Shown: positions 2,951 through 27,457, counted from the stretch's first letter. The stretch: 32,000 nt of DNA from Acaryochloris marina MBIC11017 (GCF_000018105.1 NC_009925.1:1740001-1772000); one strand, 5' to 3'. The notes: generated by a model not told the origin, from the letters alone. Numbers and translations: made by a program.

Positions 2951-3010
2951 AGCCCAAGAATACCAAGATTCAAAGCGATCAAAAAAATCTTAGTATTCTT
3001 GGGCTTTTAT
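2951..3010 (+). terminator. Long hairpin followed by a T-run (intrinsic-terminator-like)
   Basis: The arms AGCCCAAGAATACCAAGATT (2951-2970) and AATCTTAGTATTCTTGGGCT (2986-3005) pair over 20 bp with one mismatch and a 15-nt loop. They are followed by TTTTATATTT on the plus strand only. Confidence 0.35.
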
Positions 3011-3104
3011 ATTTCATATTCACATCAATATAGATTTAGAATAAAGCTCTCATATATCACTTACAGACAATATTTCAATATTAATTTTTTTTCACAAAAA
3101 AAGC

Positions 3105-3133
3105 TTGACTTGAAATAATCACTACTGTATTAA
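3105..3133 (+). promoter_or_regulatory. Candidate sigma70-type promoter for the peptide gene array
   Basis: TTGACT (3105-3110), a 17-nt spacer, then TATTAA (3128-3133), about 145 nt upstream of the first peptide ATG. AT-rich context makes chance matches likely. Confidence 0.3.
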
Positions 3134-3276
3134 TATAACAAGCGATGAAAAGTATCCAACGGGAGCAAAACTAAATACTTTTCAAAACTCTAAACAAACA
3201 GACTTTATTTTCAATCCAAAAACAAAGTCTGTTCAACGTAAACGATTAAATACCTTAGTGCAAGTGAGGTCATATC

Positions 3277-3510
3277 ATGTCTGAATTATTTACTGACTTG
3301 TCTGATCAACAGCAAGAACTCGTTGCTGGTGGTTCAGTCACTCTACTCAACGTCAACGCGACCAACTTCTACTCAAATACTGAAATCCTTGGGGCTGCTG
3401 GAGCTGCTGGCTCTACTCCAGGTGGATCAGTTGCTGTTGGTGAAATTGCTGGTGCGAACCAAGAAATTTATACCAATGCTCTTGGTGTTCAATTTGGTAA
3501 TGTTTCCTAG
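3277..3510 (+). CDS. Double-glycine-leader peptide precursor, copy 1 (bacteriocin-like)
   Basis: 77 aa. The leader MSELFTDLSDQQQELVAGG matches the LSxxELxxIxGG-type double-glycine consensus. The core is 58 aa, Gly/Ala/Asn-rich and Cys-free. A conserved GTGCAAGTGAGGT motif with a GAGG Shine-Dalgarno lies at 3258-3270. Confidence 0.85.
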   Translation: MSELFTDLSDQQQELVAGGSVTLLNVNATNFYSNTEILGAAGAAGSTPGGSVAVGEIAGANQEIYTNALGVQFGNVS

Positions 3511-3783
3511 GTACAGATTAACTCTGGCTTAATCATTACCAACATTCCGTTGTATTGAGAACAACCAAGAGCTGGTCTTAATTGTGAACCTAGTACTCCA
3601 CCACATAGAAGACGACAGGTTCCTAAAAGCTAAGATGCATTGACATCAAGTATTTTGCTTGCGGTGATTTTATCGAAATCACTGTGGCATAGTCCTAGGA
3701 TATTCACAATTGTTTTGATCCCAGCTTTTGGTTAGTTCCAAGCATTATTCACATTCATTTTTTTGTGCAAGTGAGGTTACATT

Positions 3784-4017
3784 ATGTCTGAATTATTTAC
3801 TGAATTGTCTGATCAACAGCAAGAGCTTGTAGCTGGTGGTTCAGTCACTCTACTCAACGTCAATGCCACAAATTTCTACTCCAATACTGAAATCCTTGGG
3901 GCTGCTGGGGCTGCTGGCTCCACACCAGGTGGATCAGTTGCTGTTGGTGAAATTGCTGGTGCGAACCAAGAAATTGATACTAAAGCGCTTAGTGTTCAAT
4001 TCGGTAACGTTGCTTAG
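3784..4017 (+). CDS. Double-glycine-leader peptide precursor, copy 2
   Basis: 77 aa, differing from copy 1 at 5 residues, 4 of them in the last 13 aa. The upstream motif lies at 3765-3777. Confidence 0.85.
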   Translation: MSELFTELSDQQQELVAGGSVTLLNVNATNFYSNTEILGAAGAAGSTPGGSVAVGEIAGANQEIDTKALSVQFGNVA

Positions 4018-4186
4018 GCATCATTTTTTACCCTAACAACATAGTTCTATTTTGCAAGACTACTGAAAGCAGGTGTATACAATACCGAACAAACTAACAA
4101 CAATTCTTTTTTAGTTTGAAATTAAGCTTTTCAGTAGTACTTACATCTAATTCCATTAATCTCTTAAGTGCAAGTGAGGTCATATC

Positions 4187-4420
4187 ATGTCTGAATTATT
4201 TACTGAATTATCTGATCAACAGCAAGAACTCGTTGCGGGTGGTTCAATCACATTGATCAATGCCAATCTAACCAGCTTTAAATCCAATACTGAAGTTCTT
4301 GGTGCTGCTGGTGGTGCTGCTTCTGGTCCTGGTGGATCTGCAGCGGCTGGTGAAATTGCTGGTGCCAACCAAGAACTTTATACCACTGCCATTAACTTTC
4401 AGTATGGCAACGTACTATAG
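4187..4420 (+). CDS. Double-glycine-leader peptide precursor, copy 3
   Basis: 77 aa. The leader MSELFTELSDQQQELVAGG is identical to copy 2. The core has diverged but is collinear. The upstream motif lies at 4168-4180. Confidence 0.85.
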   Translation: MSELFTELSDQQQELVAGGSITLINANLTSFKSNTEVLGAAGGAASGPGGSAAAGEIAGANQELYTTAINFQYGNVL

Positions 4421-4577
4421 TCATCCATTTGACTGAGTTCTAGGTTTCAAAACCACACGATTAGGGCTGTATAAATTGCATGAATTCTTTTAGTGAACAA
4501 CCTTTATCAAGTTCATTATGGAATCACAATTTCATCCAGCCCTATTCCAGTTTGTCCCAACGTTCCAATCAACTATT

Positions 4578-4823
4578 ATGTCTGGTCAATCCTCTGAGTT
4601 ATTTATAGAGCTATCTGAACATGAGCAAGAAATTGTTGCAGGGGGCACAACAACACTATTCAACTTAAATCAGACGGAATTCTTCTCTCAGTTAAACCTC
4701 TATCAAGCGAGTGGCGTAGCCACTGCTGGCCCCAACGGTGCTAGTGCATCTGGGTCAATCACCCACATGAACCAAACCATAGACACCAAGGCATTCAACT
4801 TCGTCTTCGGCCAGATTGATTGA
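4578..4823 (+). CDS. Double-glycine-leader peptide precursor, copy 4 (divergent)
   Basis: The track ORF starts at 4518. The internal ATG at 4578 gives MSGQSSELFIELSEHEQEIVAGG, collinear with copies 1-3, so 4578 is preferred. The core keeps the NxNxTxF and FGx end motifs. Confidence 0.75.
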   Translation: MSGQSSELFIELSEHEQEIVAGGTTTLFNLNQTEFFSQLNLYQASGVATAGPNGASASGSITHMNQTIDTKAFNFVFGQID

Positions 4824-4860
4824 TAAAAAAACCGGGAAGGCAGGTATCTCAATCATCCCA

Positions 4861-4873
4861 GTGCAAGTGAGGT
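4861..4873 (+). repeat. Orphan fourth copy of the peptide-gene translation-initiation motif GTGCAAGTGAGGT
   Basis: The 13-mer is identical to those 7 nt upstream of the ATGs of copies 1-3, but no start codon or ORF follows. Confidence 0.6.
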
Positions 4874-5048
4874 TTTTGGATATATCCTGCTTTCCCTTAA
4901 GTGGCTAAAACATTGAGATTCCAGTGTTTTAGCTATTCAGAGAGCTTTTAGCTTCTCAAGGATTTAATTATAACAGGCATTAAAGATTAGCTAGTTTCTT
5001 GACCTAACCCCCTATCAATCTCCTTAATGCATAGCCCCATAAGATTCC

Positions 5049-6353
5049 ATGAATACCCTCCAACCTGATCAACTTCACTTTGTTCAGGAAGATGAATTTT
5101 TACCCTCCATTAGCCCGTGGATTTCAATGGGGGGAATGGTTTTGGTGCTGGTATTCGGTGCCGCTGTTGCCATTTCCTCTACCCTCAAATTCAGCATCAC
5201 TGTCAAAGCCCCTGCAGCCATTCGGCCCGCAGGTGGCCTGAGTATCGTCCAAAGTGGTATTGATGGCACCATTACTCATATCAACGTGGAGGAAAACCAG
5301 GTCGTCAAAAAAGGCGATCTGTTTGCACAGCTAGACGATTCAGGGTTGCAAACCCGCAAAAGCCAACTGCAAGGAGATATCCAATCCATTACCCTGCAGA
5401 GATATCAGATCAATGCTCAACTCAGAGCGTTAGACCATCAAATTATTGCTGAAACCCGGTTAGTCAGCCGTTCCATCGCCGCCGCAGAAGCCAACTTAAC
5501 CTCACACCGTCGTCGCTATCAAGATCTTAAAATCAGTACCGAAGCAGACCTAGAAGAAGCCCAAGCTGGGTACCACCTGGCTTCTGAAGAGTATCTACGC
5601 TTCAAAGAACTCGAGGAATCAGGAGCCATTGCCAAACTGCAGGTCAAAGAGAAAGAAGCCTCTTTGAAAGCGGCATCCGCCAGAATTAAGCGTCTTAAGG
5701 CTGCAACCAATCCATCAGACGCCACTATTGATCAAGCCTTAGAACAAATTGCCCAGGAAAAAGCCAGAGGTAGTGTCACCCTGGCAGGTCTCAATCAACA
5801 AAAAGAACAGCTGATGCGCACCCGCATCGAAGCCCAAAAGCAGCTCCAACGCACTCAAAAAGAGCTACAGCAAATCGATAACGAACTCAAAGGTACTAAA
5901 ATCCGGGCTCCCATCGATGGCACCGTTTTACAGCTCAATCTACGCAATCCCGGTCAAGTGGTGCAGCCTGGAATCCCCATCGCTCAAATTGCCCCCCGCA
6001 ACGCTCCTTTGATTATCAAGGCTAGGGTCAACGCCCAAGATATCAACCAGGTGAAAACAGGGCAGATGGTTCAAATGCGCGTTTCAGCCTGCCCCTACAC
6101 GGATTACGGCACCTTACAGGGAACCGTTATGAATGTGTCACCGGATGCCATTCCGGTGAATGATGCTAGCGGTCCAGCCACTAGTCCAGCTTTTTATGAA
6201 GTTACCGTACAACCTCGAACCTTATATATGGGCAATCAACAGCGCTGGTGCCGCCTGCAATTTGGGATGGAGGGTCGAGCCGATATTGTGTCACGCCAAG
6301 AAACCGTTCTCCAATTTGTCTTGAAAAAAGCCCGCTTAATGTCCAACTTCTAA
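5049..6353 (+). CDS. HlyD-family membrane-fusion / periplasmic adaptor protein of the peptide exporter
   Basis: 434 aa. It has an N-terminal TM helix (ISPWISMGGMVLVLVFGAAVAISS), a long Q/E/K-rich coiled-coil centre and a C-terminal KIRAPIDGTVLQLN barrel motif. It lies directly upstream of the C39-ABC gene. Confidence 0.85.
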   Translation: MNTLQPDQLHFVQEDEFLPSISPWISMGGMVLVLVFGAAVAISSTLKFSITVKAPAAIRPAGGLSIVQSGIDGTITHINVEENQVVKKGDLFAQLDDSGLQTRKSQLQGDIQSITLQRYQINAQLRALDHQIIAETRLVSRSIAAAEANLTSHRRRYQDLKISTEADLEEAQAGYHLASEEYLRFKELEESGAIAKLQVKEKEASLKAASARIKRLKAATNPSDATIDQALEQIAQEKARGSVTLAGLNQQKEQLMRTRIEAQKQLQRTQKELQQIDNELKGTKIRAPIDGTVLQLNLRNPGQVVQPGIPIAQIAPRNAPLIIKARVNAQDINQVKTGQMVQMRVSACPYTDYGTLQGTVMNVSPDAIPVNDASGPATSPAFYEVTVQPRTLYMGNQQRWCRLQFGMEGRADIVSRQETVLQFVLKKARLMSNF

Positions 6354-6380
6354 CTCGCCTGATCAAACGATAAAGGCACC

Positions 6381-8576
6381 TTGTCCATGCCCTCTTTAAT
6401 GCTCCTCAATCCCCTACTCAAATCACGCAAAAGCTACCAGTGTGTCAAGCAATGGAGCGAAGAAGATTGTGGAGCCGCGTGCCTAGCTTCAATCTGCAAG
6501 TATTATGGCCGTCTACTGAGCATTACCCGTAGTCGGGAAGTGGTGGGAACAGGACAACTTGGCACCACCCTGTTAGGTCTGAAAAGAGGCGCTGAAGCCC
6601 TAGGGTTCAATGCCCGTTCTGTGAAAGCATCAGAAGCGTTGATTGATCGGCTACAGGACATCTTACTGCCAGCCATTATCCATTGGAAAGGCTATCACTG
6701 GGTCATTCTCTATGGCAAACGCGGTCGCAAGTATGTTGTGGCCGATCCAGGCGTGGGGATTCGGTATCTCACCAAACAGGAACTTCTCGAATCATGGAAT
6801 GGCATCATGCTCTTACTGGAGCCTGATGTCGATCGATTTCATGATCGAGGCGAAGACGAAGAAAAGTCCGGTGGATTTTCTCGCTTCCTGGGTCGGATTT
6901 GGCCCTATCGTACGATTCTGAGCCAAGCCCTTTTGATCAATATTGTCCTGGGATTATTGGCCCTCTCCAGCCCTTTTCTCATCCAGATTCTGACCGATGA
7001 TGTCTTGGTCCGTCAGGATATGGAGTTGCTGACGGTCGTAGTGGTGGGGGTTGTCATTTCCCAAGTGTTCAGCAGTAGCCTGCAAATCATGCAGTCGAAC
7101 CTGATTGCCCACTTCAGCCAGCGGCTGCAGCTCGGTCTAGTCTTAGAGTTTGGTCGCAAAATCCTGCAACTCCCCCTGAACTACTATGAGTCGCGCAGAA
7201 GCGGGGAGATTATCAGCCGTTTGCGAGATATTAACGAAGTCAATCAACTGGTCTCACAAATCGTTGTTCGGGTCCCCAGTCAAATTTTTGTTGCCATTAT
7301 TTCCATTGGCTTCATGCTGTTTTACAGCGCGAGTTTAACCCTAGTGGCTGCAGGGATTGCCATCATCATGGCTATCTCAACCCTGCCATTTCTGCCAATA
7401 TTGCGGAAGAAAACTCGCAATTTACTGATTCTGTCTTCTGAAAATCAAGGAGTCTTAGTTGAAACCTTCAAGGGAGCGCTAGTCCTGAAAACGACCAACG
7501 CAGCGCCCCAGTTTTGGGAAGAGTTTCAATCTCGATTTGGCCGACTAACCCACCTCACCTTCAGCACCATCCAACTGAGTGTCCTCAACGGTACCTTTAC
7601 TCAGTTGATTTCGAGTATTGGCAGTGTCGCTCTTTTGGCCACGGGAAGTCTGCTGGTCATCAAGGAAGAAATCAGTATTGGCCAGTTACTAGCCTTCAAC
7701 ACTATGCAAGGCAACATGCTCGCTTTGATGACGACCATCATCGGCCTCACAGATGAATATTTTCGGGCTCAAACGGCAATTGGCCGTATTTTAGAGGTCA
7801 TCGATGCCACACCAGAATCCGTCGGAGAGACTAACAAACCTTTTGCCCAGCTCTCTGGAGACCATGATATTACCTGCTCCCATTTAAACTTTCACCATGC
7901 TGGGCGAGTCGTTCTCCTAGATGATTTTTCCTTGACGCTACCTGGGGGGAAGGTAACCGTCATCATTGGGAAATCCGGCTGTGGTAAAAGCACCCTGGCC
8001 AAGGTGATCGCAGGCCTTTATCAAACCCAGTCTGGAACCGTCAGAATCGGTCCCTATAATTTACAGGATTTGTCCATCGTCGCTCTCCGGCAACAAGTCT
8101 CGTTTGTCCCCCAAGAACCTCATTTTTGGAGTCGATCCATTATTGAGAACTTTCAGCTAGGCAACCCGCAAGTCTCGTTTGAACAAATCGTAAAGGCCTG
8201 CCAAATTGCGGATGCTGACAGCTTTATCAGCGAATTACCCAATACGTACCAGACCGTTTTAGGTGAGTTTGGTGCCAACTTATCGGGTGGGCAGCGGCAG
8301 CGGTTAGCCATTGCTCGGGCCATTGTTAACGATCCACCCATCTTGATTTTGGATGAATCCACTGCAGGCTTAGATCCCGTGAGCGAAGCCGAAGTTCTAG
8401 ATAAATTACTAGCCTATCGCCAAGGCAAAACGACCATCATGATTTCCCACCGCCCCAGCACCATTAAACGAGCAGAGTGGTTGATTCAAATGGAAAAAGG
8501 CCAACTGCTTTTGGAAGGAGACTTTGCCTCCCTAGCTACTCAACCTGGAGAACATCAGAAGTTTTTAAACCACTAA
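6381..8576 (+). CDS. Peptidase-C39-domain ABC transporter (double-glycine leader cleavage and export)
   Basis: 731 aa. C39 motifs: QWSEEDCGAACLASI (Cys), IIHWKGYHWVILYG (His), VVADPG (Asp). It has a six-helix TMD, Walker A GKSGCGKST, signature LSGGQRQRLAIARA, Walker B ILILDEST and H-loop ISHR. The start is TTG at 6381 or ATG at 6387. Confidence 0.92.
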   Translation: MSMPSLMLLNPLLKSRKSYQCVKQWSEEDCGAACLASICKYYGRLLSITRSREVVGTGQLGTTLLGLKRGAEALGFNARSVKASEALIDRLQDILLPAIIHWKGYHWVILYGKRGRKYVVADPGVGIRYLTKQELLESWNGIMLLLEPDVDRFHDRGEDEEKSGGFSRFLGRIWPYRTILSQALLINIVLGLLALSSPFLIQILTDDVLVRQDMELLTVVVVGVVISQVFSSSLQIMQSNLIAHFSQRLQLGLVLEFGRKILQLPLNYYESRRSGEIISRLRDINEVNQLVSQIVVRVPSQIFVAIISIGFMLFYSASLTLVAAGIAIIMAISTLPFLPILRKKTRNLLILSSENQGVLVETFKGALVLKTTNAAPQFWEEFQSRFGRLTHLTFSTIQLSVLNGTFTQLISSIGSVALLATGSLLVIKEEISIGQLLAFNTMQGNMLALMTTIIGLTDEYFRAQTAIGRILEVIDATPESVGETNKPFAQLSGDHDITCSHLNFHHAGRVVLLDDFSLTLPGGKVTVIIGKSGCGKSTLAKVIAGLYQTQSGTVRIGPYNLQDLSIVALRQQVSFVPQEPHFWSRSIIENFQLGNPQVSFEQIVKACQIADADSFISELPNTYQTVLGEFGANLSGGQRQRLAIARAIVNDPPILILDESTAGLDPVSEAEVLDKLLAYRQGKTTIMISHRPSTIKRAEWLIQMEKGQLLLEGDFASLATQPGEHQKFLNH

Positions 8577-8600
8577 TCCATCGTCATTAGGAGAAAGATC

Positions 8601-8918
8601 ATGGCTCAATTACAAAACAGTCCGCAACTTCCGCAAATCATCGATCTACCATCAGACTTATTTGTTGAATTATCTGATCCAGAACAGGAGACCATTTCAG
8701 CTGGATTTGGCTTAACCTATCTCTATTTTGAGCAGGAAATCATTTCGTCGTCATCGTCCAATACGACGGAAATTGACAATCTATCTCCTGGCTCCGGTAG
8801 CGGTCGTACCTCTCAGCAAGCCAACTATGATTCGAAACGCACTACGTTTGCCTTCGGCGGATTAATTCCCATTCGTTCGGTTTCTTCGTTTATTGCCTCC
8901 ATTCTCAAATTGTTTTAG
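8601..8918 (+). CDS. Divergent leader-peptide precursor (AG cleavage motif, C-terminal hydrophobic tail)
   Basis: 105 aa. It has a strong SD, AGGAG at 8589-8593, 7 nt before the ATG. LFVELSDPEQETISAG resembles the other leaders. The core keeps a family-like TTFAFGG end motif and adds the 22-aa tail LIPIRSVSSFIASILKLF. Confidence 0.7.
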   Translation: MAQLQNSPQLPQIIDLPSDLFVELSDPEQETISAGFGLTYLYFEQEIISSSSSNTTEIDNLSPGSGSGRTSQQANYDSKRTTFAFGGLIPIRSVSSFIASILKLF

Positions 8919-8999
8919 CGGGGTCGCGCTGAAGCTGCATCATTGCGTAAATTGGCCCTTCCGGTTGCAAGACTACTTCCCTATTAGATTGAGTTCAAC

Positions 9000-10340
9000 A
9001 TGACTAAGACGCTGGTGACAAATACTGTTTTAAGGCAGGATAGTGGAGAGAGTGACGTTTCATCTCATCAGGTGATCCGATTGGATCGCCCTCTGAGTTC
9101 TTTGAGCACAGGTGAAGCGTCTATATCGTTAGGCCCCATCATGTTGCAGTCTCTTGGACAACTTGTTTACACCAGTTTTCCTAACGTCGGGTTTAGGCAC
9201 TTATCGAGTCCCCACATCCCGCAAGAGATTCAACATGCATTTGTTCATCAAGTAGTCTACTTACGCTGGAACTCGTACAATCCCCCAGCTGCTGACTATC
9301 GGGCGGCCTACCTCTATCAAATTAATACAGACAACACCTTATTCGGGTGGTTGTATGGCGATGCCACCGATGATGTTGGTCGTCATGTTCCCTATTTTAT
9401 TGGCTACCACCTGGCAGAACCGTTGACGGAAGATTATCTAAATAGTATCTATATCTGCCTACAGCGAGGGCCAACAGCGATTTCTAGCAAGGAAGAGCTG
9501 AGTCAGGGGGTTTTAGAAAATATCTCTATTCCCGATATTCGCGGCTATCCCCCTGCCCGGATTGGCGTTGATATCCCCGATGACATTCGCAACTACAGCT
9601 GTACGTTTTTGCAAATGCAAGAGTTGCTGAATATCTTTGTGCCAGCCAGTGAGCGTCAGTCCAGACTTTCCTCCCCGGCTGTCTCCTCTGAAGAAGTAGA
9701 CCTCACCCAATCCCTCTCCAAGCAAAAAACCGTTATTCAGCCCCAGAAAAATCAGCCTGGGACGACGCTTCAACCCCGCAAATCTCAGCCGGCCCAACCT
9801 CAACCGGCCCAGCCTCAGCCGGCCCAGCCTCAGCCGGCCCCTATGAACTATCTAGAGCAAATTCTCTATGAATTAATTGCCAAACCCATTGGGATTCAAA
9901 GCGCATTTTTAGTGTCCATAGAAGGACTACCCATCACCTCTCCCATTGGTATTAGCGAAAATAGTGCCTTGATTATTGCTGGTACTATGCTGTATCTCGC
10001 CAGAAGTACTCACGAAGAATTGCAGTGGCAAGGCATTGAGAAAATTTCGGTCCAGGCCCAAGAAGGATACGTCATTCTAGCGAACTGTACATCAGATATT
10101 TTTCTGCTGGTCAAAGCAGCTAAGGCTTTAACGGGCCTACTAGATGGCGAGATCAACCGCACGATCAAGCGTCTCCAAACGGCCCTCCAAATTGAACATT
10201 TGGATAAAGATACTGAGTTATCTCCAGAAGCCCAGCATGAGTTAGTTACCCAACTTAATTTAGATCAGGCCGCCTCAGACTTCTTAGAGGAATCCACCGA
10301 CAACTTTGACATGCAATATCGGGGCAACTCTATCCAATAG
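9000..10340 (+). CDS. Fusion protein: unknown N-domain, Pro/Gln linker, C-terminal Roadblock/LC7 (MglB-like) domain
   Basis: 446 aa. The C-terminal region (about 9843-10190), FLVSIEGLPITS...ALIIAGTMLYLA...EGYVILANCTSDIFLLVKAAKALTGLL, aligns by eye with MglB-type Roadblock domains. The start is uncertain, with an alternative Met at about 9144. Confidence 0.7.
   Translation: MTKTLVTNTVLRQDSGESDVSSHQVIRLDRPLSSLSTGEASISLGPIMLQSLGQLVYTSFPNVGFRHLSSPHIPQEIQHAFVHQVVYLRWNSYNPPAADYRAAYLYQINTDNTLFGWLYGDATDDVGRHVPYFIGYHLAEPLTEDYLNSIYICLQRGPTAISSKEELSQGVLENISIPDIRGYPPARIGVDIPDDIRNYSCTFLQMQELLNIFVPASERQSRLSSPAVSSEEVDLTQSLSKQKTVIQPQKNQPGTTLQPRKSQPAQPQPAQPQPAQPQPAPMNYLEQILYELIAKPIGIQSAFLVSIEGLPITSPIGISENSALIIAGTMLYLARSTHEELQWQGIEKISVQAQEGYVILANCTSDIFLLVKAAKALTGLLDGEINRTIKRLQTALQIEHLDKDTELSPEAQHELVTQLNLDQAASDFLEESTDNFDMQYRGNSIQ
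9786..9842 (+). repeat. About 3.8 copies of a 15-nt tandem repeat encoding (QPAQP)n
   Basis: The units are CAGCCGGCCCAACCT, CAACCGGCCCAGCCT, CAGCCGGCCCAGCCT and CAGCCGGCCCCT, in frame inside the 446-aa ORF. Confidence 0.9.
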
Positions 10341-10496
10341 AGACTCGCTTCAGCCCTCCATGGGTATCGGTTTTCCCATTACTTTCCTATCTCATCCATA
10401 TCGAATCGTAGCCTCTTGAGGCTTCTATTTTTGGCATTTCATCACATTCAATTTTCTAGTCCCCCCTTTATTTCGAGTCGTTAAACCTTTAAGACC

Positions 10497-11864
10497 ATGA
10501 GCTTATTATTTGGAGATGATCCTAAAACCCTGAATTTGCTGAGCATTGGTGAGCGGGGCGTCGGTAAAACTGTTTTTTTAGTCGGTAGCTATACCGAGTC
10601 AAACCATCGCTACGAAGGAGATCAGCCCCAAAAACGATGGTTTGACTGTGACGATCACGATGCTCACAAAAATATCCAAGGGGTCTTGAACTATATTGCG
10701 CAAACGGGCCATTATCCCCCTCCCACCATGAAGATCGCTGACTTCACCTTTAGCTTGAAGCAGAAACGGCTGTGGGGGACACAAACCCTCTGTCACTTCC
10801 GGTGGTGGGATATGCCCGGAGAAATCTGTGATTTGAACAACCGTCAATTTCAATCGATGGTGTTGAGTTCCCAGGGCTGTTGTGTCTTTATCAATGCTTA
10901 TTCCCTTATTCACGAACCGGCCTATTTAGAATCAGTCAAAGACATGATCGAATTGGTAACTGCGATCGCATCTTTGATCAAACATCACAACCTGCAATAT
11001 CCGATGGCCCTGATCTTCACCCAATGCGATCGTTTAGAGGCAGGCCCCTTAGGCCAATTGCAAATTGAGAAATGTCTAGAACCCCTGATTATTCGCCTAG
11101 AGAATGCCCGCACCAACTATCGACGGTTTTACTCCTCTATCCCGATTGTGCGCATCGACGGCACCCCCGTTCTACGGGCCAGTGGCTCTGCCGATGGCCT
11201 GGTGTGGGTCACCTCTGAACTGTGTAAAGCTCGGTCAGTCCAATCTGGACAAGATTTGGCCACAAGTTTATCCCAAAGTACCTCCCTCGATCATCAATTT
11301 GTCCCCACGGTACGACGCCCCGGCTTTGCACTGGGACTTATTTCGGCTGGCGTGGTTGGCTTCTTAACCGTGGGGTTTGCCCTGACATCCCTCTGGTCTA
11401 CCCAACCTCCCCAACAGGCACAAGCAACCCAAAGAACGCTCCAAGATCACCACAATGTGTTGACCCGAGATCCGAATAATTTAGATTCCCTGATTTCCGT
11501 CTACGACCATTATGTAGAAGTGGGTCAACTGGCTAAAGCGGTGCCGTTATTAGAGAAAATTGTGGCTCAAAAGCCGACCCATCTCGATTTGAAATTCAAC
11601 TTGGCCGACCTCTATGAATTAACCGGAGAAAAGCAAAAAGCAGAAGCGACTTATGATGGGATTCTGACAGCCCAGCCCCAGGATGTTAAAGCCATTGTGG
11701 GGAAAGCAATTCTCAGGGGCGAAGCAGGAGATTTATCCACCGCTCAATCCCTATTTCAGCAGGCCGAAAACATCGCAGCGACTCAAGAGGCCAAAGGCAA
11801 AATTAAAGAGATTGCAGCCCAAACGCTGCAGACACAAGCGCCCGTCAACACCACAACGGAATAA
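10497..11864 (+). CDS. P-loop small-GTPase-like protein with one TM helix and a C-terminal TPR domain
   Basis: 455 aa. G1 is GERGVGKT (10548-10571), G3 is WWDMPGE and the G4-like motif is FTQCD. A hydrophobic helix GFALGLISAGVVGFLTVGFALTSLW lies at about 11320-11400. TPR-like repeats run from LISVYDHYVEVGQLAKAVPLLEKIVAQKP to LFQQAENIA. Confidence 0.7.
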   Translation: MSLLFGDDPKTLNLLSIGERGVGKTVFLVGSYTESNHRYEGDQPQKRWFDCDDHDAHKNIQGVLNYIAQTGHYPPPTMKIADFTFSLKQKRLWGTQTLCHFRWWDMPGEICDLNNRQFQSMVLSSQGCCVFINAYSLIHEPAYLESVKDMIELVTAIASLIKHHNLQYPMALIFTQCDRLEAGPLGQLQIEKCLEPLIIRLENARTNYRRFYSSIPIVRIDGTPVLRASGSADGLVWVTSELCKARSVQSGQDLATSLSQSTSLDHQFVPTVRRPGFALGLISAGVVGFLTVGFALTSLWSTQPPQQAQATQRTLQDHHNVLTRDPNNLDSLISVYDHYVEVGQLAKAVPLLEKIVAQKPTHLDLKFNLADLYELTGEKQKAEATYDGILTAQPQDVKAIVGKAILRGEAGDLSTAQSLFQQAENIAATQEAKGKIKEIAAQTLQTQAPVNTTTE

Positions 11865-12210: not shown

Positions 12211-12555
12211 ATGTCCTGGAGAAAAATTGTTGAGATCCTAGCTGGTGGACTCGCAGGATATTTGTTAGGGAAATACGCCAGTCTAGCCTTATACACCACC
12301 GTCGTTGGCCCGATCAAACTCGGCAATACAGGTCTCTTTCCAATTCTTATCTCTACGGTACTCGGATTAATTTTTTGTCTTATTCCTTTACTCCTCGGCA
12401 ATGGCTTATTGCTGTCGTTCCTACCGAAGGTAGGGCTCTGGTCAACGGGAATCTCGGTGGTGATGAGTTTATATACGTTGGCCCTGGTGATCATTGCCAT
12501 CGCCTTTGGCGTTTTTGGTAATAATTCGCCTTTGCCTTTGCCATTCTGGTTATAA
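12211..12555 (+). CDS. Small integral membrane protein (about 4 TM)
   Basis: 114 aa and very hydrophobic, with helix-length segments. GGAG lies 10 nt upstream of the ATG. It is preferred over the overlapping antisense 147-aa ORF, which is Arg/Pro-rich and unprotein-like. Confidence 0.55.
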   Translation: MSWRKIVEILAGGLAGYLLGKYASLALYTTVVGPIKLGNTGLFPILISTVLGLIFCLIPLLLGNGLLLSFLPKVGLWSTGISVVMSLYTLALVIIAIAFGVFGNNSPLPLPFWL

Positions 12556-12663: not shown

Positions 12664-13041
12664 ATGGAAGATTCTCGCGACGTTTTAGAAAATAGAACTT
12701 TAAAGCGTCTTTTTCTATTCATTTATTTGGTCCCTGTGTTTGGCGTCGTCCCGGCCCTCTGGACCCTCAGTCGACGAGATAGCGATCGCAAACAGCGAGA
12801 AGTGAGCCGAGTCGCCACTTTAATTGGCTTGGCCTGGCTGATCGGCACCCTACTTCTGACATCCGGGGTCGCCGTTACTAGCGGTGAGAATGCCCAGAGT
12901 ATGGGGATTTCGCAATTATTGTTCAACAGCTTATTTACATCCAGCTATTTTCTCAGCAACCTTTGGCTGATGGTGCGAGTTTGGCGACGTCAGTCCCTTG
13001 ACCTTCCAGGACTAAAACGCATTACTAAATATTTACCCTAA
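12664..13041 (+). CDS. Small membrane protein (about 3 TM)
   Basis: 125 aa with hydrophobic helices. Its stop (13039-13041) is 2 nt before the ATG of the following GTPase gene, which suggests translational coupling. Confidence 0.65.
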   Translation: MEDSRDVLENRTLKRLFLFIYLVPVFGVVPALWTLSRRDSDRKQREVSRVATLIGLAWLIGTLLLTSGVAVTSGENAQSMGISQLLFNSLFTSSYFLSNLWLMVRVWRRQSLDLPGLKRITKYLP

Positions 13042-13043
13042 CG

Positions 13044-14594
13044 ATGGCCTGGCCCCGCCTCCTTATTCTGCTGTTAGGCCTCGCTATTATTTTGGGGCTG
13101 ATGCTCTGGCTGATCAGCTCACTGCAATGGCTATACGCCCAAGTGGCCCTGACCTCGCCTTTTTTAGCCAACTTACTGGTGTTCTGCCTGATTGCCTTAA
13201 TGGCCGTTCTGATCGGGGTTTTTATCTATTACGGTTGGCAGTTTCGAGGCCGAAAAAAGCCCAGGCAGCGTCCGCCTCAAGTCCCCACGGATAAGGTCGA
13301 TGCCGCTGCCTCCAATCTCCGTGCCGTGCGTCGTCAGATTCAGCAGATCCAAGACGAAGTCACCCGCCAAGCCCTACTGAAAGAAACGCGGCAAATGGCG
13401 AAGACCTTTACCCGCCGGGAACTCAAAATCGTCGTCTTTGGCACGGGGTCCGCAGGCAAGACCTCTTTGGTCAATGGGATTTTAGGACAAATGGTGGGGG
13501 AAGTCGGCGCAACCATCGGCACCACAGCAGTGGGACAAACCTTTCGCTGTCAGCTACGCAGTGTTGATCAGGCGTTACTGGTTACGGATACCCCAGGATT
13601 ATCTGAACCGGGCGTTGCCGGTACCGAGCGAGAACAGGCTGCCCGGAAGCTAGCAACAGAGGCCGATTTACTGCTGTTTGTGGTTGATGGTGATTTAACC
13701 CAGTCTGAATATCAGCCCCTAAGGGCCTTGGGCCGAATGGGTAAACGGTCTTTGTTAGTGTTCAATAAAACAGATTGCTATACCCAAACCGACCAAGACC
13801 TGATTCAGCAACGCCTGCATGAGCGCGTCCAGAACTGGATTCAGCCGGAAGACGTGGTTGCGATCGCAGCCCGTCCCCAACCCGTCCGATTAGCCTCTGG
13901 GGAAATCCTGGAACCGGAGCCAGACCTCAAAGCGCTTCTCCAACGCATCTCTCGAATTCTGCGGCAAGAGGGAGAGGACTTATTTGCCGATAATATTCTG
14001 CTTCAATCCCAACGTTTAGGGGCAGAAGCTCGACAGCAGATCGATCAAGAACGTCGTCAGCAAGCCGACCAAATTGTCGATCGGTTTCAATGGATAGGTG
14101 CTGGCGTGATTTGGGTCACCCCGGTCCCCGTCATTGATTTGCTAGCAACCGCTGCCGTCAACACCCAAATGGTGATTGAGATTGCCAAAATTTATGGCTG
14201 CGATCTGACCCTCGATCGAGCCAAAGATTTGGCCCTCTCCCTCGCGAAGACCATGGTCAGTTTGGGCATAGTCAAAGGTGCGATTGAAGTCTTTGCCCGG
14301 GCCTTGCAATTTAGTGTGGTGGGATTTGTCGTCGGTAAAACCATTCAAAGCGTGGGAGCCGCCTATCTAACGCGAATCGCGGGTAAGAGCTTTATTGAAT
14401 ATTTTCGCAACGATCAAGAGTGGGGAGATGGCGGTATGACAGAAGTCGTGCAGCGCCAATTTCAGCTCCATCGCCGTGATCGGTTCGTCAAAGCCTTTAT
14501 CCAAGAGGCGATCACCAAACTTCCAGCTGAATTCGGCCGTCGTGTCCAGGAGCAGTTAAGCCCGATTCGTTCTGAGCCTACCGACCATCCTTAA
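13044..14594 (+). CDS. Membrane-associated GTPase with a C-terminal DUF697/YcjF-like domain
   Basis: 516 aa. It has two N-terminal TM helices, G1 GTGSAGKTS, G3 DTPGL and G4 NKTD. The C-terminal hydrophobic region PVPVIDLLATAAVNTQMVIEIAKIYG is typical of DUF697, recognised from memory. Confidence 0.8.
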   Translation: MAWPRLLILLLGLAIILGLMLWLISSLQWLYAQVALTSPFLANLLVFCLIALMAVLIGVFIYYGWQFRGRKKPRQRPPQVPTDKVDAAASNLRAVRRQIQQIQDEVTRQALLKETRQMAKTFTRRELKIVVFGTGSAGKTSLVNGILGQMVGEVGATIGTTAVGQTFRCQLRSVDQALLVTDTPGLSEPGVAGTEREQAARKLATEADLLLFVVDGDLTQSEYQPLRALGRMGKRSLLVFNKTDCYTQTDQDLIQQRLHERVQNWIQPEDVVAIAARPQPVRLASGEILEPEPDLKALLQRISRILRQEGEDLFADNILLQSQRLGAEARQQIDQERRQQADQIVDRFQWIGAGVIWVTPVPVIDLLATAAVNTQMVIEIAKIYGCDLTLDRAKDLALSLAKTMVSLGIVKGAIEVFARALQFSVVGFVVGKTIQSVGAAYLTRIAGKSFIEYFRNDQEWGDGGMTEVVQRQFQLHRRDRFVKAFIQEAITKLPAEFGRRVQEQLSPIRSEPTDHP

Positions 14595-14789: not shown

Positions 14790-16157
14790 ATGGAAACATC
14801 TGAAACCTCAAATTTACAAGAACCCGTTGAAGCACAAATTGCAGTCGCGGAACGATCGTTCAACTCCACCATCAAATCCTTGAAACAACGTAGCAGTCGG
14901 AATTGGATCATTGCCGGTGTGGCCCTTATGGGGACAGGGCTGGTGGTCTGGCAATTTTGGCCCAAAGGGGCCAAAACCACGGGTCAACAGGGTCCGCCGC
15001 CGACTTTGGTCAAAGTTCAGACCGTCCAAACCAGTCCAGTCAAGCAAACCTCTGCCTTCCTAGGCACCTTAGAAGCCAAGCAGGGCGTGGTGCTACGCCC
15101 CGAAACAGAAGGACGAGTCACTCAGATTTTTGTCTCATCGGGGTCGAGGGTGTCCCCTGGCCAGCCTATTGTTCAACTCAGTCCCGAGAAATCTCAAGCA
15201 GACTTCGGCGCAGCGGTGGCCAATATCAATGTAGCCACCGCCGCCAGCAGCAATGCCCAAGCCCAACTTCGAGCCGTCCAAGCCGATCGTGCCAGGGCAG
15301 TTGCTGAGCTGGAATTGCAAAATACAGAGTTTCAGCGGACCCAGACCTTGGTCAAACAAGGGGCACTGGCCAAGCAAGTATTGGATCAAGTCCGCCGCGA
15401 CCGCGCCTCTGCCCAAGCGGCTCTCAGAGCAGTAGATGAGCAAATTCGTGCGGCTAAAGCCAACTTAACCCAATCTAGAGCCAGCCTCAATCAAGCCAAA
15501 GCCAGCGCCTTATCGGCTAGAGAAGATGTACAAGATACGCGCATCACAGCCCCCATTGCGGGGATGGTGGGGGATATTCCCATTAAGTTAGGTTCCTTTG
15601 TACAGGCCGGTGACACCCTTACCACCATTATTCAAAATCAAACCCTAGAGATCAATCTCAATATTCCGATTGAGAAGCGCGAGCAGCTCGCAGTGGGATT
15701 ACCAGTCGAACTCAGCCAAGCCCAATCCCAAGACATCCTGGCCCAGGGACGTATCAGTTTCGTCTCACCCACGGTCAATAACGAGAGTCAATCCGTCTTA
15801 GCCAAGGCCACCTTCGCCAACCCCAAAGGGACATTACGGGATGGTCAACGGGTCGAAGCTAACGTGGTTTGGCAAACCCGTCCGGGGGTATTAGTGCCCA
15901 CCACCGCTGTGACACGATTGGGAGGTAAAGCCTTTGTCTTTATTGCTGATCAGCCACAACAACCAGACGGTCAAGTACCTGGGATGGTGGCTCGCCAGCA
16001 ACCCGTTGAGCTAGGCAGCATCCAGGGCAACGACTACCAAGTGTTGGAGGGTATCCAAGCCGGTGAAACCATCGTTATTTCTGGCCTACAAACCATCAGG
16101 GATGGGGCCCAACTGCGCCTTGATGACAACAAATCCAGCGGCAAACCACCCCAGTAA
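14790..16157 (+). CDS. RND efflux periplasmic adaptor (membrane fusion protein)
   Basis: 455 aa. It has an N-terminal TM anchor, Ala/Gln-rich coiled-coil hairpin and an RITAPIAGMVGDI lipoyl-like motif. It lies directly upstream of the RND pump. Confidence 0.88.
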   Translation: METSETSNLQEPVEAQIAVAERSFNSTIKSLKQRSSRNWIIAGVALMGTGLVVWQFWPKGAKTTGQQGPPPTLVKVQTVQTSPVKQTSAFLGTLEAKQGVVLRPETEGRVTQIFVSSGSRVSPGQPIVQLSPEKSQADFGAAVANINVATAASSNAQAQLRAVQADRARAVAELELQNTEFQRTQTLVKQGALAKQVLDQVRRDRASAQAALRAVDEQIRAAKANLTQSRASLNQAKASALSAREDVQDTRITAPIAGMVGDIPIKLGSFVQAGDTLTTIIQNQTLEINLNIPIEKREQLAVGLPVELSQAQSQDILAQGRISFVSPTVNNESQSVLAKATFANPKGTLRDGQRVEANVVWQTRPGVLVPTTAVTRLGGKAFVFIADQPQQPDGQVPGMVARQQPVELGSIQGNDYQVLEGIQAGETIVISGLQTIRDGAQLRLDDNKSSGKPPQ

Positions 16158-16277
16158 GCTGCCTTAGCATTTGCACTGTACTTCACTGATTCGATATTCT
16201 CTCCCATTTAGCCTCTCTCCTTGGCTGTGCCTGCTGATTCCTAGCCTCCCCCCTCGCAACCGTCCTTCCCCCCTCTT

Positions 16278-19200
16278 ATGCTTGTCAATTTTTTCATTAA
16301 ACGGCCCGTCCTGACGACCGTTTGTGCCCTCCTGATCCTGCTGATGGGCCTTGTTTGTCTTCCCACCTTACCCATTGCCCAATATCCAGATATCAGCCCG
16401 AAACAGGTCAGTATTCAGGCCAACTTTATTGGTGCCGATGCCGCCACTGTCGAAGATGGCGTCACGAGCATTCTGGAACGGGAGATTAACGGGGTCGAAG
16501 GTCTTCGCTACATGACCTCAAGCAGCAGCAACAGCGGCTCTAGTTCTATCACCGCCACCTTTGAGAATAATCGTGACCAAGATTTAGCAGCGGTGGATGT
16601 GCAGAATCGCGTCTCCAGTGTGGAGTCCCAGTTACCCGCGGCTGTCCAACAGACCGGGGTCCGGGTGACGAAACAATCCAGCAGCATTCTGATGGGCTTT
16701 GGCCTCTTCAGTGAGGACGACGAGTACGACAGTATTTTCCTGAGTAACTATGCGGACCTATATCTAACCAATGCCCTGAAGCGCGTCAATGGCGTTGGTA
16801 ATGTCACTATTTTCGGAGAACGGAAATATGCCATGCGCCTATGGCTCGACCCCGAGCGGTTAGCCAAGCGCAATCTAACCGGGCAAGATGTGGTGGATGC
16901 CCTACAAGAACAAAATATTCAAGTGGGGGCGGGACAAATTGGTCAACCGCCCGCCCCAGAAGGTCAGCAGTTCCAAATTGATATCCGCGCCGAAAGTCGA
17001 CTCAACACGATTGAAGAATTTGAGGCGTTAGTCGTTGACTCCACCGACGGTAATCTGATCAAGCTCCAAGATGTTGGGCGAGTTGAATTGGGGGCTGAAA
17101 ATTACGGTTCATTCTTACGGTTTCGCGGTAAAGACGCGGTCGGCTTGGGGATTTCCCAAATCCCTGGGAGTAACGCCCTAGACGTTGCTCGGGGCGTCAA
17201 AGAAACCATGGCAACCCTATCTGAAGACTTCCCCCCAGGGATGACCTATGACATCGGTTTTGACACCACCGATTATGTGGAGCAGTCCCTAACGGAAGTA
17301 ATCTGGACCTTAATCCAAGCGGTTGGTTTAGTGGTCCTGGTGATCTTTGTCTTTTTGCAAGATTGGCGCACCACCATTATTCCCGCCGTCACCATTCCCA
17401 TTTCCCTAATTGGGACGTTTGTATTTGTTAAATTATTCGGCTTTTCCATCAATAGCTTGACCCTGTTTGGTCTCACCCTGGCCACAGGCATGGTGGTGGA
17501 TGATGCCATTGTGGTGGTCGAAAATGTTGCCGCCAAAATTCAGAATGAGGGCATCGAGCCTCGTCAGGCCGCCATTGTGGCTATGGAAGAGCTAACAGGG
17601 GCCGTCATTGCCACCTCTCTTGTTTTGATGGCGGTGTTTGTACCTGTAGCCTTTTTCCCCGGTACAACAGGTGCACTGTATCAACAGTTTGCCTTAACGA
17701 TTGCATTTGCGATCTCACTCTCCACCTTCAACGCCCTCACCCTGACTCCCACCCTATCCGGATTACTCCTCCGTCAAAATCCCAGCATTCCTGACTGGAT
17801 AGCACCAGCCTTCAATTGGTTTAACCGCCAGCAAGATCGGCTTCGTCAGAGCTACGGCAACATTTTGGACTGGATGAACCGGTTCAAATATTTCATCTTG
17901 GCGATTTTTGCTGCCCTGTTAACCTTTACCGCTTGGATTTATACCACTGTCCCTTCAGCCTTTCTACCGGAAGAAGACCAAGGGTATTTCCTCACCATTG
18001 TCGGTGCCCCCGATGGTGTGTCTCTGGAATACACCAGCGACGTCATGAAAAAGATCGAAGAGGTCATGCTTCCCCTACCTGAAGTGCGGGCCACCTTCGC
18101 CGTGGGAGGATTTAGCTTTGGGGGCAATGCATCCAATAAAGGGATTGTGTTTACCACTCTCAAACCCTGGTCAGAACGCCGCAGCTCCGAACAATCTGCC
18201 CAAGCAATTATTAATCGAGTGCGCGGTCAATTATTCCAAATTCCCGAAGCCCGCATTCTAGCCATCAATCCACCCGCTATTCGGGGGCTCGGGAGCTATG
18301 GAGGATTCACCTTCCAACTCCAAGACCGCTCAGAGAATTTAAGCCTCGATGAGTTTGTCAGTAACTTAGGGCCAGTCTTGGGAGCCGCTAACAGCAATGA
18401 TGCCCTCGAAGGGGCATTCACCACCTATGGAGCCAATACACCACAGCTCAAGGTCGAAGTCAATCGTCAGCGAGCGAAAGCCCTCCAAGTCGATGTGGAC
18501 GAAATTTTCAATACCCTGCAGATCTATTTGGGGTCTCGGTATGTCAACGATTTCAATTTAGGTCGCCGCACCTATCGGGTCTATGTGCAAGCCGATCAAC
18601 AGTTTCGCTCCAATCCCGATGATATTGGCAAGCTATACGTGCGCTCTGGCACGGACCAAATGATTCCCCTCAGTAACTTAGTCACCATTACGTCCGTAAC
18701 GGGTGCTCAAACGATTAATCACTATAATCAATTCCGGTCCATTGAGATTAACGGAGCCGCCAAGGCAGGGGTGAGTTCTGGGCAAGCCTTACAAGCCATG
18801 GAAGAAATTGCCGCCAAAGTTCTCCCGCCAGGACTAGGGTTTGAATGGTCAGGTATCTCCTTGGAAGAAATCGAGTCCGGGGGGCAAGCAACAATTATTT
18901 TCAGTTTGGGTTTGGTACTCGTCTTCCTAGTTCTGGCTGCCCAATACGAAAGCTATGTGGATCCAGTTATCATTATGCTCTCCGTTCCCCTCGCAGTTTT
19001 AGGGGCGTTGGGAGCCCAAGTCTTACGGGGCTTTTCCAACGATATTTACTGCCAAATTGGTCTCGTGATGCTGATTGGTCTCGCGAGTAAAAACTCAATT
19101 CTGATTGTTGAGTTTGCCAACCAACTCCGGGAAGAAGGACTCCCCATTCCTAAAGCGGCCCTGCAAGCGGCCCAACAACGACTCCGACCCATTTTAATGA

Positions 19201-26847: not shown

Positions 26848-27457
26848 TGTTTTATCTCAAGAATGATTTTTATGATAATTCAAAACTAATTTTTGTGAAA
26901 TAAAAATATTCGCATTTATTTTTTAATTCATATTTTTTGGAAAAACTTAAGAACAAATATATTCTCAATCCGTTTATTGTCCTCTACCTTAATAAGCATT
27001 GTCTTATAATATTTTGCTAATCCAGTGAAATGCTAAGATGCCCTTTTTTGATATAGATACTAAATTAAGATTTACTTTAAAATTTCTTGGTCAATTTTTT
27101 TTGACAGATTGATAAAAGGAGTGAATTATATTTTTCAATAGTATTGAAATGGTGACAGATCTCAGCAACTCTCTTGTCTTAATATTCTCTCAATAAATTA
27201 AGCTTGAGCAGATATAGTTTCAACTATATTTTTCCCTAAGAAATATATAATTTAAGCTTGAATTAGAAATTTTTTATGATCACTTCCATGTAATAAAAAT
27301 CACAACTAAAATAATAAAAAATCTTAATCTTTTTGTATGTATTTTATTCTTATACATTATGCAGTTTTCTTTATTTTTTACTAAAAAATTTAATTCAGTA
27401 TTTTATTTGTCAATTTGTTGACATACTATTTTCTATAAACACCACATCATGATGAGA

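Follow-up and report, generated by a model that had tools for sequence, protein, structure and literature searches.

A predicted membrane GTPase and its cyanobacterial partner domain encoded beside C39-ABC peptide-export cassettes

Introduction

DO-GTPase/GAP1 systems have been predicted computationally (Kaur, Burroughs, Iyer and Aravind 2020, eLife; PMC7159879; Pfam PF19993 and PF19975), the DO-GTPases being described there as TRAFAC GTPases that have a glutamate in the Walker-B motif; their GAP1-N2 type was described mainly outside cyanobacteria. They are the nearest described kind to a gene pair that we analyze here, which differs from them in its partner domain and in a genomic association that is new. 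The pair follows a double-glycine peptide-export cassette in a stretch of 32,000 nucleotides (nt) from the chromosome of Acaryochloris marina MBIC11017 (NC_009925.1:1740001-1772000), hereafter the window. Gene 1 encodes a domain that we call the N-domain, joined to a Roadblock/LC7 domain; gene 2 encodes a predicted GTPase followed by one transmembrane helix and tetratricopeptide repeats (TPR).

The likeness to DO-GTPase/GAP1 systems lies in a predicted TRAFAC GTPase with a Glu after the Walker-B DxxG, in a partner gene that is usually immediately downstream, and in the variable C-terminal fusions of that partner (caspase, or transmembrane helix plus outside domains). Some of the GTPases also carry a C-terminal transmembrane helix with an outside binding domain, and the pair resembles the membrane-associated GAP1-N2 systems. 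Unlike the described systems, most PF19993 scores are below threshold and the window's protein has no match; the pair is without zinc ribbons, a second GTPase, or GAP1-N/M/C, FNIII or GASH domains. The partner is instead the cyanobacteria-specific N-domain, set apart by its lack of Pfam GAP1 matches, and the pair is linked to peptide exporters, a link not reported by Kaur et al. (PMC7159879).

A second comparison is with MglA/MglB, the Cvn conservons and Rag/Ragulator, where likewise a GTPase gene adjoins a gene with a Roadblock/LC7 fold; MglB, LAMTOR2 and 3kye, a Roadblock protein of Streptomyces, are among the structural matches of gene 1. Unlike in these systems, the GTPase is not MglA/Ras-like by profile, is membrane-anchored, and is fused to TPR. 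Roadblock is moreover dispensable across the family, being replaced by transmembrane-WD40, PstS-like or caspase moieties, whereas the N-domain is conserved. A third comparison is with the RRNPP receptors of Firmicutes, which are cytoplasmic and have helix-turn-helix (HTH) or phosphatase outputs. As there, TPR is a possible peptide-binding module encoded beside exported-peptide genes; unlike there, TPR is predicted to lie outside the cytoplasm, after the transmembrane helix, with a GTPase as transmitter and no DNA-binding output.

Cyanobacteria have many cassettes of C39-ABC and double-glycine peptide genes, whose products matter for biofilm (EbfG/PteB) and heterocyst development (HetC/HetP). 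About 2.5 such clusters occur per cyanobacterial genome (Wang et al., PMC3140520). The window's cassette is like those known as peptidase-containing ATP-binding cassette transporter (PCAT) cassettes (Wang et al. 2011 group III; EbfG/PteB of Synechococcus elongatus) in its CTB-type double-glycine peptides, HlyD and short C39-ABC; a related locus described below is like HetC/HetP of Nostoc. Unlike here, the descriptions of cyanobacterial PCAT cassettes that we consulted do not mention a GTPase, Roadblock or WD40 gene as a cassette part. In the full-text literature we found no paper linking any of these three genes to cyanobacterial double-glycine peptide cassettes, and no mention of ABW26782/3 or of alr1203/alr1204; papers on bacteriocin clusters, on HetC and on Anabaena biofilm double-glycine peptides do not mention the pair. 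The authors of the HetC paper regard it as an open question which signal-transduction system senses the product once exported.

Results

The pair stands beside peptide exporters in distant cyanobacteria

A scan of one genome for each species gave the 80 loci kept for analysis, numbered with the prefix L. The pair, in the same or a variant form, stands beside PCAT cassettes in several cyanobacterial orders: a C39-ABC exporter lies within 10 kb of 19 of the 80 loci, in at least five arrangements and with two PCAT types, and in 18 loci the C39-ABC protein is at least 55% identical to the window's. Five Acaryochloris loci share the gene order of the window. Loci of Nostoc, Desmonostoc, Dendronalium, Scytonema, three Leptolyngbyaceae and one Pseudanabaenaceae genome have the order peptides, HlyD, ABC, peptide, GTPase, N-domain-transmembrane-WD40; the HlyD gene is convergent in two Chroococcidiopsis loci, and one exporter-linked locus (L006) has an inserted gene. 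The complete genome of Leptolyngbya NIES-3755 has the order CTB, HlyD, ABC, type-2 peptide, GTPase, N-domain-transmembrane-WD40, with only 11, 5 and -1 nt at the last three junctions; the spacing in Desmonostoc is about 40 nt.

The nineteenth locus (L031, Xenococcaceae; 2975-11284) has a HetC-type trio of cyclic nucleotide monophosphate (cNMP)-C39-ABC, HlyD and HetP-family genes (NF037966, E=6e-36 for the last) directly upstream of N-domain-Roadblock and GTPase-TPR genes. At L087 and L088 (10001-19135; Hydrococcus-type) an N-domain-Roadblock gene lies about 2 kb from a hetC-like/HlyD/hetP trio. These trios occur in non-heterocystous, Pleurocapsales-type genomes, and the three loci may bear on the HetC substrate and its perception.

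A peptide family that we term type-2, which includes the fifth peptide of the window, accompanies the exporter-linked pairs. Its gene adjoins the ABC gene in 15 of the exporter-linked loci, and in 14 of these stands between the ABC gene and the pair; the family is absent from the exporter-less paralogue loci. Its core has a conserved F.FQQT...RTGYSFRQTTxAF or ...KRTTFAFGG and a hydrophobic end. A neighbour-joining tree built from the GTPase domain puts the loci with a linked exporter, the window included, inside one large clade. Adjacency to an exporter in 24% of loci compares with roughly 1% by chance within 20 kb, our own rough estimate from the cluster counts in PMC3140520 and one not corrected for phylogeny.

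The window had earlier been read from its sequence by a model. This first-pass annotation asked whether synteny with C39-ABC, HlyD and double-glycine peptide genes is conserved, and it is kept in distant cyanobacteria. With the GTPase assignment, the Roadblock fold and the transmembrane helix upheld as well (see below), none of the three outcomes set beforehand as refuting it was found.

The N-domain is the constant partner of the GTPase family

In 52 of the 80 loci the GTPase gene has an N-domain gene no farther than 10 kb away. In 46 of these the two genes share a strand and are no more than 350 nt apart, the N-domain gene usually lying directly downstream. Among 46 partner proteins scanned, 26 have the architecture N-domain-transmembrane-WD40; the others are N-domain-transmembrane-PstS-like, N-domain-Roadblock (sometimes with V4R) or short transmembrane forms. 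Protein searches add fusions of the N-domain to caspase (Peptidase_C14) and SepF; instances of the caspase, SepF and PstS-like fusions are P0076, P0091, P0092, P0081, P0082 and P0086 among the proteins and L044, L078 and L034 among the loci.

The GTPase itself comes in two forms, one of about 450 amino acids (aa) with TPR and one of 310-336 aa without. The short form always has a transmembrane-WD40 partner, so every well-called pair has at least one predicted outside domain, whether TPR, WD40 or PstS-like. These comparisons identify the N-domain, not Roadblock, as the universal partner of the GTPase family. Roadblock is one of several interchangeable C-terminal fusions, an accessory of the Acaryochloris and Pleurocapsales type.

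Two proposals of the first pass have to be given up here. It had cast Roadblock as the switch partner of the GTPase; the N-domain is the constant partner, and Roadblock is replaced by other fusions. It had also treated TPR as the conserved outside element; most exporter-linked orthologues are 310-336-aa GTPases without TPR, the WD40 being on the partner. Both the N-domain as universal partner and the conserved link to peptide export are new. A constant cytoplasmic core of GTPase and N-domain with variable outside modules resembles a signal-transduction system.

The GTPase family has many paralogues per genome. A plasmid search found no copies of the pair, and neither of its proteins had a PADLOC match. 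In strain PCC 7424 an ammonium transporter gene splits the pair, which adjoins Wza/Wzc polysaccharide-export genes. In another lineage (L081 351-6556, L082 5367-11368, L086 4084-11122) the N-domain-Roadblock and GTPase-TPR genes diverge around a gene for a triple-GAF methyl-accepting chemotaxis protein (MCP) of about 1020-1040 residues, possibly a cyanobacteriochrome-type receptor; there the GTPase-TPR gene is followed by an exporter operon of TetR, membrane fusion protein (MFP), FtsX and ABC genes.

Gene 2: a predicted GTPase with one transmembrane helix and TPR

Gene 2 is ABW26783.1 at 100% identity, publicly annotated only as 'tetratricopeptide repeat protein'. The G1, G3 and G4 motifs read in the first pass could all be located (Table 1), and their equivalents, G1 GxRGVGKT, G3 DxPGE and G4 T[QK]CD, together with a candidate switch-I Thr77 and a G5-like YS[SA]IP, are invariant or nearly so in 37 homologues, many of which have TKCD at G4; residues K24, D105, G108, E109 and D178 are invariant in that alignment. 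E109, in DMPGE, is the Walker-B Glu that marks DO-GTPase2.

Profile matches come from the relatives of gene 2. DO-GTPase2 (PF19993) gave no match to gene 2 at E<=1, and it matched 22 of 25 homologous GTPase domains (best E=1.4e-8). Of six full-length homologues, four scored 19.1-25.6 bits (model 6-206/226) against a threshold of 27 bits, and two had no match. No Ras, Arf or MglA-type Pfam match was found, and Roc and Gtr1_RagA matched weakly and sporadically in 3-4 of 25 members. An MglA-type classification was rejected, the GTPase not being MglA/Ras-like by profile. The AlphaFold model of gene 2 (predicted local distance difference test, pLDDT, 76) has alternating strands and helices; TPR proteins dominate its Foldseek list, in which EF-Tu (1ttt, 1d8t) appears at E about 1e-4 with a root-mean-square deviation (rmsd) of 12-13 A over the whole chain. 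A PDB profile search with the whole protein was likewise swamped by TPR matches, and one with the GTPase domain alone gave sub-threshold P-loop matches only, to Rab32/Rab38 and RagD. The DO-GTPase2 matches in homologues and the weak EF-Tu resemblance of the model support the first-pass placement of the P-loop domain within the TRAFAC GTPases, and a predicted TRAFAC-type GTPase distantly related to DO-GTPase2 is the supported assignment.

The single transmembrane helix suggested earlier is likewise kept in all 37 homologues, and Lys/Arg are usually richer on its N-terminal side. About three TPR repeats had been noted; TPR_19 and TPR_14 score above threshold, the model has eight helices there, Foldseek matches MamA, CTPR and OGT TPR domains, and the repeats number about 3.5. 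A GTPase requires cytoplasmic GTP. Because the P-loop strand is at the start of the protein, there is no signal peptide, and one transmembrane helix follows, the TPR domain is predicted to face the periplasm or thylakoid lumen with the GTPase in the cytoplasm, the topology proposed in the first pass. No HTH was detected in gene 2 in a Pfam scan, and it is not of the RRNPP type.

Gene 1: N-domain, linker, Roadblock and tail

Gene 1 is ABW26782.1 at 100% identity, publicly annotated as 'roadblock/LC7 domain-containing protein'. Its product is cytoplasmic and carries the universal partner domain of the family plus Roadblock. An identification of gene 1 as HetP was considered and rejected.

The first-pass annotation left about 270 aa before Roadblock unrecognised; this region resolves into a doubtful 47-aa extension, a conserved domain of 167 aa (the N-domain) and a disordered linker. 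Homologues outside Acaryochloris begin at M48 (9141; alignments A2 and A4). The extension (9000-9140) is open in six Acaryochloris sequences, with its first ~16 codons conserved, and is absent from all other homologues; a codon-position test did not show in it an excess of third-position substitutions. Translation may in fact begin at 9141, in which case the extension would be untranslated leader. Relative to L001, substitutions at the three codon positions number 13/4/72 in the N-domain and 7/2/45 in Roadblock; at the sequence level both genes of the pair are under purifying selection.

The N-domain is a new partner domain for which Pfam has no model. A phmmer search of 1.84 billion proteins found 179 cluster representatives, cyanobacteria-specific and N-terminal every time; it returned this tight family alone, with no bridge to GAP1 or longin proteins, the query being a single sequence whose reach is lower than that of a profile. 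Searches of Pfam, NCBIfam and PADLOC with the N-domain gave no match. GAP1 Pfam families were likewise absent, with none at E<=1 in the 46 partner proteins and none at E<=0.001 in the 46 locus-encoded partners. In the AlphaFold model the order of strands and helices fits a longin sandwich (b-b-a-b-b-b-a-a); longin, SRX and PAS-like are the candidate fold classes of the domain. Comparison with Roadblock by hhalign gave a probability of 0.2%, that is, no relationship. A viral fold library searched with the gene 1 model gave no match at E<=0.001; it matched synaptobrevins, which we take to be longin-type, weakly (E 5e-3 to 4e-2), and the domain that they matched could not be assigned. Nor can the N-domain fold be read from the Foldseek search of gene 1 against the PDB, because the 50 matches listed are all Roadblock-type.

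Roadblock was modelled with pLDDT >90, and those 50 listed matches are almost without exception chains of Roadblock, MglB, MglC or Ragulator (LAMTOR) proteins, most of them having template-modelling (TM) scores of 0.7-0.83 and rmsd 2-3 A at probability 1.00; for 9jue, 3kye, MglB 6hjm and LAMTOR2 the TM score is about 0.8 and the rmsd about 2 A. Robl_LC7 (PF03259) scores gene 1 at 20.2 bits (E=5e-4), below its 23-bit gathering threshold, and matches 33 of 46 relatives (best E=1.5e-9). On the strength of the structural model, aa 284-405 are a true Roadblock fold. The MglB-type Roadblock/LC7 domain of the first pass therefore stands as to fold and fails as to place: it had been put in the last ~115 aa, and the very end of the protein is a 41-aa tail. 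Most N-domain-Roadblock proteins across genera share the tail motif ...RYRG[RN]xxx, which could be a docking motif. Between the N-domain and Roadblock, aa 263-281 of the linker read QPAQPQPAQPQPAQPQPAP. A second, stand-alone Roadblock match, 45% identical to gene 1 aa 288-397, adjoins the N-domain-Roadblock and GTPase-TPR pair of a Thermosynechococcaceae genome (L043 5342-5671, - strand).

Layout of the window

All genes of the cassette and pair are on the + strand (Table 1). With a C39-ABC fusion, HlyD and double-glycine-leader substrates on one strand, the upstream genes form a PCAT double-glycine export cassette. ORF (open reading frame) calls agree with the two same-strand genes that the first pass had placed after the exporter and the fifth leader peptide, with gaps of 81 nt (fifth peptide to gene 1) and 156 nt (gene 1 to gene 2).

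Table 1. Coordinates of the export cassette and of the gene pair with its domains; positions are those of the window.
Feature	Position	Strand	Evidence or remark
CTB-family double-glycine precursor genes (four)	3277-3510, 3784-4017, 4187-4420, 4518-4823	+	NCBIfam NF038167 E=9e-15
HlyD-family membrane fusion protein	5049-6353	+	Pfam HlyD_3 E=7.7e-24
Peptidase-C39 ABC exporter, short-type PCAT	6381-8576	+	Pfam Peptidase_C39 1e-32, ABC_membrane 3.9e-30, ABC_tran 1e-33
Fifth leader peptide, type-2	8601-8918	+	weak CTB leader match
Gene 1, N-domain-Roadblock protein	9000 (or, more likely, 9141)-10340	+	446 aa as called
N-domain, aa 49-215	9144-9644	+	order b-b-a-b-b-b-a-a, AlphaFold pLDDT >90
Disordered linker, Gln/Pro-rich	9645-9848	+	QPAQP repeat 9786-9842; pLDDT <50 for aa 227-266
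Roadblock/LC7 domain, aa 284-405	9849-10214	+	Foldseek, Pfam Robl_LC7
C-terminal tail, 41 aa	10215-10340	+	ends in YRG motif (MQYRGNSIQ); alignment A2 consensus ...RYRGR...
Gene 2, predicted GTPase-transmembrane-TPR protein	10497-11864	+	455 aa
Predicted GTPase domain	10521-11231	+	G1, G3, G4 and G5-like motifs, DO-GTPase2 matches in homologues
GTPase motifs G1 GERGVGKT, G3 DMPGE, G4 TQCD	10548-10571, 10809-10823, 11019-11030	+	
Candidate switch-I Thr77; G5-like motif	within 10713-10733; 11127-11147	+	
Single transmembrane helix, aa 276-298	11322-11390	+	Kyte-Doolittle 2.12
TPR domain, 8 helices, aa 308-445	11418-11831	+	Pfam TPR_19 3.1e-10, TPR_14 above threshold

A leader-coding repeat of 53 nt occurs in five copies, the fifth (8652-8704) ending AG instead of GG; the fifth peptide has SAG at its leader end, the conserved ...RTTFAFGG... 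in its core and a hydrophobic C-terminus. The CTB precursor gene unit (257 nt) is present in three tandem copies (3255-4421, 79-90% identity, spacing 507 and 403 nt), suggesting that the type-1 peptides were recently duplicated in place; G+C is low in this region (0.35-0.40). The fourth peptide ORF, as listed, has 20 aa before its leader and likely starts at 4578 (MSGQSSELF...). A promoter and terminator scan of the window found nothing above chance and no convincing terminator or promoter between genes; the 156-nt gap holds one weak 5-bp stem with a T-run after it (10410-10423). An Rfam scan of the window also found nothing above chance.

Downstream of the pair are small membrane ORFs (12211-12555 and 12664-13041), then a membrane GTPase of the slr1306/DUF697 family (13044-14594), which also matches the PADLOC LeoA dynamin-like model (E=1.7e-16). 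This trio is kept downstream of the pair in Acaryochloris L001, L002 and L004, and in L003 without the 12211 ORF; an slr1306 homologue lies 4.4 kb downstream in L075. A resistance-nodulation-division (RND) efflux pair (membrane fusion protein and 1058-aa pump, 14790-19454) follows and is kept in the Acaryochloris loci; nothing suggests that it belongs to the peptide system. Farther on, a G+C trough (26000-28000, 0.29-0.32 vs ~0.50) covers - strand ORFs 25948-26847 and 27775-28437 and may be horizontally acquired DNA. A tRNA-Pro (TGG) gene at 31460-31542, - strand, lies inside the listed 259-aa ORF 31175-31954, which for that reason is probably spurious.

Discussion

We rank a role in signalling or feedback first, followed by an exporter accessory, a conflict system and an unrelated neighbour. 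According to the first, gene 1 and gene 2 each supply one half of a membrane GTPase switch that is conserved in cyanobacteria and whose function is linked to that of the neighbouring C39-ABC/HlyD cassette. We hold this to be evenly balanced between right and wrong, a judgement that counts its observed parts too. The N-domain would bind the GTPase as a regulator or effector (GAP-, GEF- or SRX-like, that is, resembling a GTPase-activating protein, a guanine nucleotide exchange factor or the SRX domain), and Roadblock would dimerise or offer a further surface for regulation. Outside the cytoplasm, the repeat domain, which is TPR in the window and a WD40 carried by the partner in Nostocales and Leptolyngbya, would bind an exported double-glycine peptide or else the export apparatus itself; the most plausible ligand would be the conserved type-2 peptide, whose gene adjoins the ABC gene. 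Binding would shift the GTPase cycle, leading to feedback on export or a peptide-dependent response. Because a DNA-binding domain is not present, the output would probably act between proteins, on the activity or localisation of the exporter, and not on transcription. Both TPR and WD40 are scaffolds that bind peptides, which keeps peptide sensing plausible; that the pair is a peptide-sensing receptor GTPase is plausible but unproven.

A number of observations weigh against a signalling role. The pair has no DNA-binding or other output domain, and gene 2 reached no Pfam GTPase model. The type-2 peptide stays constant while the outside domain alternates between TPR and WD40, which is unexpected for a simple ligand-receptor pair. 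Cassette and pair are divergently transcribed in L038. Many family members have no exporter within 10 kb; L008-L021, which outside Acaryochloris hold the closest TPR-type orthologues, lack both a partner and an exporter within that distance; the pair of Nostoc PCC 7524 has no exporter nearby; and some N-domain-Roadblock genes are alone, with no GTPase or exporter within 10 kb. The constant type-2 peptide with a changing outside domain, together with the constant cytoplasmic core, would fit exporter control or assembly equally well; they would also fit a conflict/immunity role of the DO-GTPase type. With so many members lacking an exporter, the pair is best described as a general cyanobacterial module, one lineage of which, the window's, is tied to PCAT cassettes.

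A bolder form of the signalling account is tentative, and we think it has the chances against it: that an undescribed class of transmembrane receptor/G-protein modules perceives PCAT-exported peptides (CTB/EbfG-like and HetC/HetP-type), each module pairing a DO-GTPase-like GTPase with an N-domain protein and bearing a TPR, WD40 or binding-protein domain outside the cytoplasm.

Were the pair instead an accessory of the exporter, which we consider unlikely, its GTPase and N-domain would act, by analogy with membrane-anchored SR-beta and the SRX domain of SR-alpha, on how the PCAT-HlyD-TolC conduit is assembled, gated, supplied with substrate or localised. TPR and WD40 would then be a periplasmic scaffold and not a ligand sensor. 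The conserved cytoplasmic GTPase and N-domain with their interchangeable outside domain are what this would predict, as are the operon-tight spacing with the ABC gene and the linkage to two unrelated PCAT types, one lineage being also beside the TetR-MFP-FtsX-ABC exporter. The many pairs with no exporter nearby speak against it, as do the PstS-like outside domains on some partners, which point to ligand sensing. To our knowledge, moreover, most PCAT cassettes of other bacteria work without such a GTPase/N-domain pair.

Slightly less likely again is a conflict or immunity module of the DO-GTPase/GAP1 kind, which would use its variable outside domains to sense envelope attack (incoming bacteriocins or phage) and would release effectors; its place beside bacteriocin cassettes would reflect an offence/defence island or self-protection of the producer. 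The DO-GTPase2 kinship with its Walker-B Glu, and the usually downstream partner with variable fusions, caspases and transmembrane segments included, give the architecture described in PMC7159879, and the many paralogues per genome agree with it. Against this, GAP1-N/M/C, FNIII, GASH and EAD domains were not detected, the pair had neither PADLOC match nor plasmid copy, and the window's partner bears Roadblock, not an effector. Pair and type-2 peptide are also vertically conserved with tight operon spacing, unlike shuffled defence islands.

It is improbable that the pair is a general polarity, motility or envelope GTPase switch (MglA/MglB-like) next to the exporter by chance: the Roadblock domain, the position of the L081 and L082 pair around the gene of a possible GAF-MCP photoreceptor, the nearness of the PCC 7424 pair to Wza/Wzc and the several stand-alone N-domain-Roadblock genes would suit it, but exporter linkage far exceeds our chance estimate, recurs in five arrangements with two PCAT types, and always brings the type-2 peptide with the exporter-linked pair.

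Whichever role proves correct, proteins annotated just as 'TPR protein' or 'hypothetical' turn out to carry a predicted GTPase, and the DO-GTPase/GAP1 theme, so far purely computational, is extended to a different partner and biological setting. A conserved membrane GTPase pair in these cassettes is a genetically testable candidate for peptide perception or export control, and some strains that carry it can be cultured (A. marina MBIC11017, Leptolyngbya NIES-3755 and several Nostoc). The pair may be how cells sense or control their exported peptides. If the receptor/G-protein class exists, peptide signalling in multicellular and biofilm-forming cyanobacteria would run through a GTPase switch and not a two-component system.

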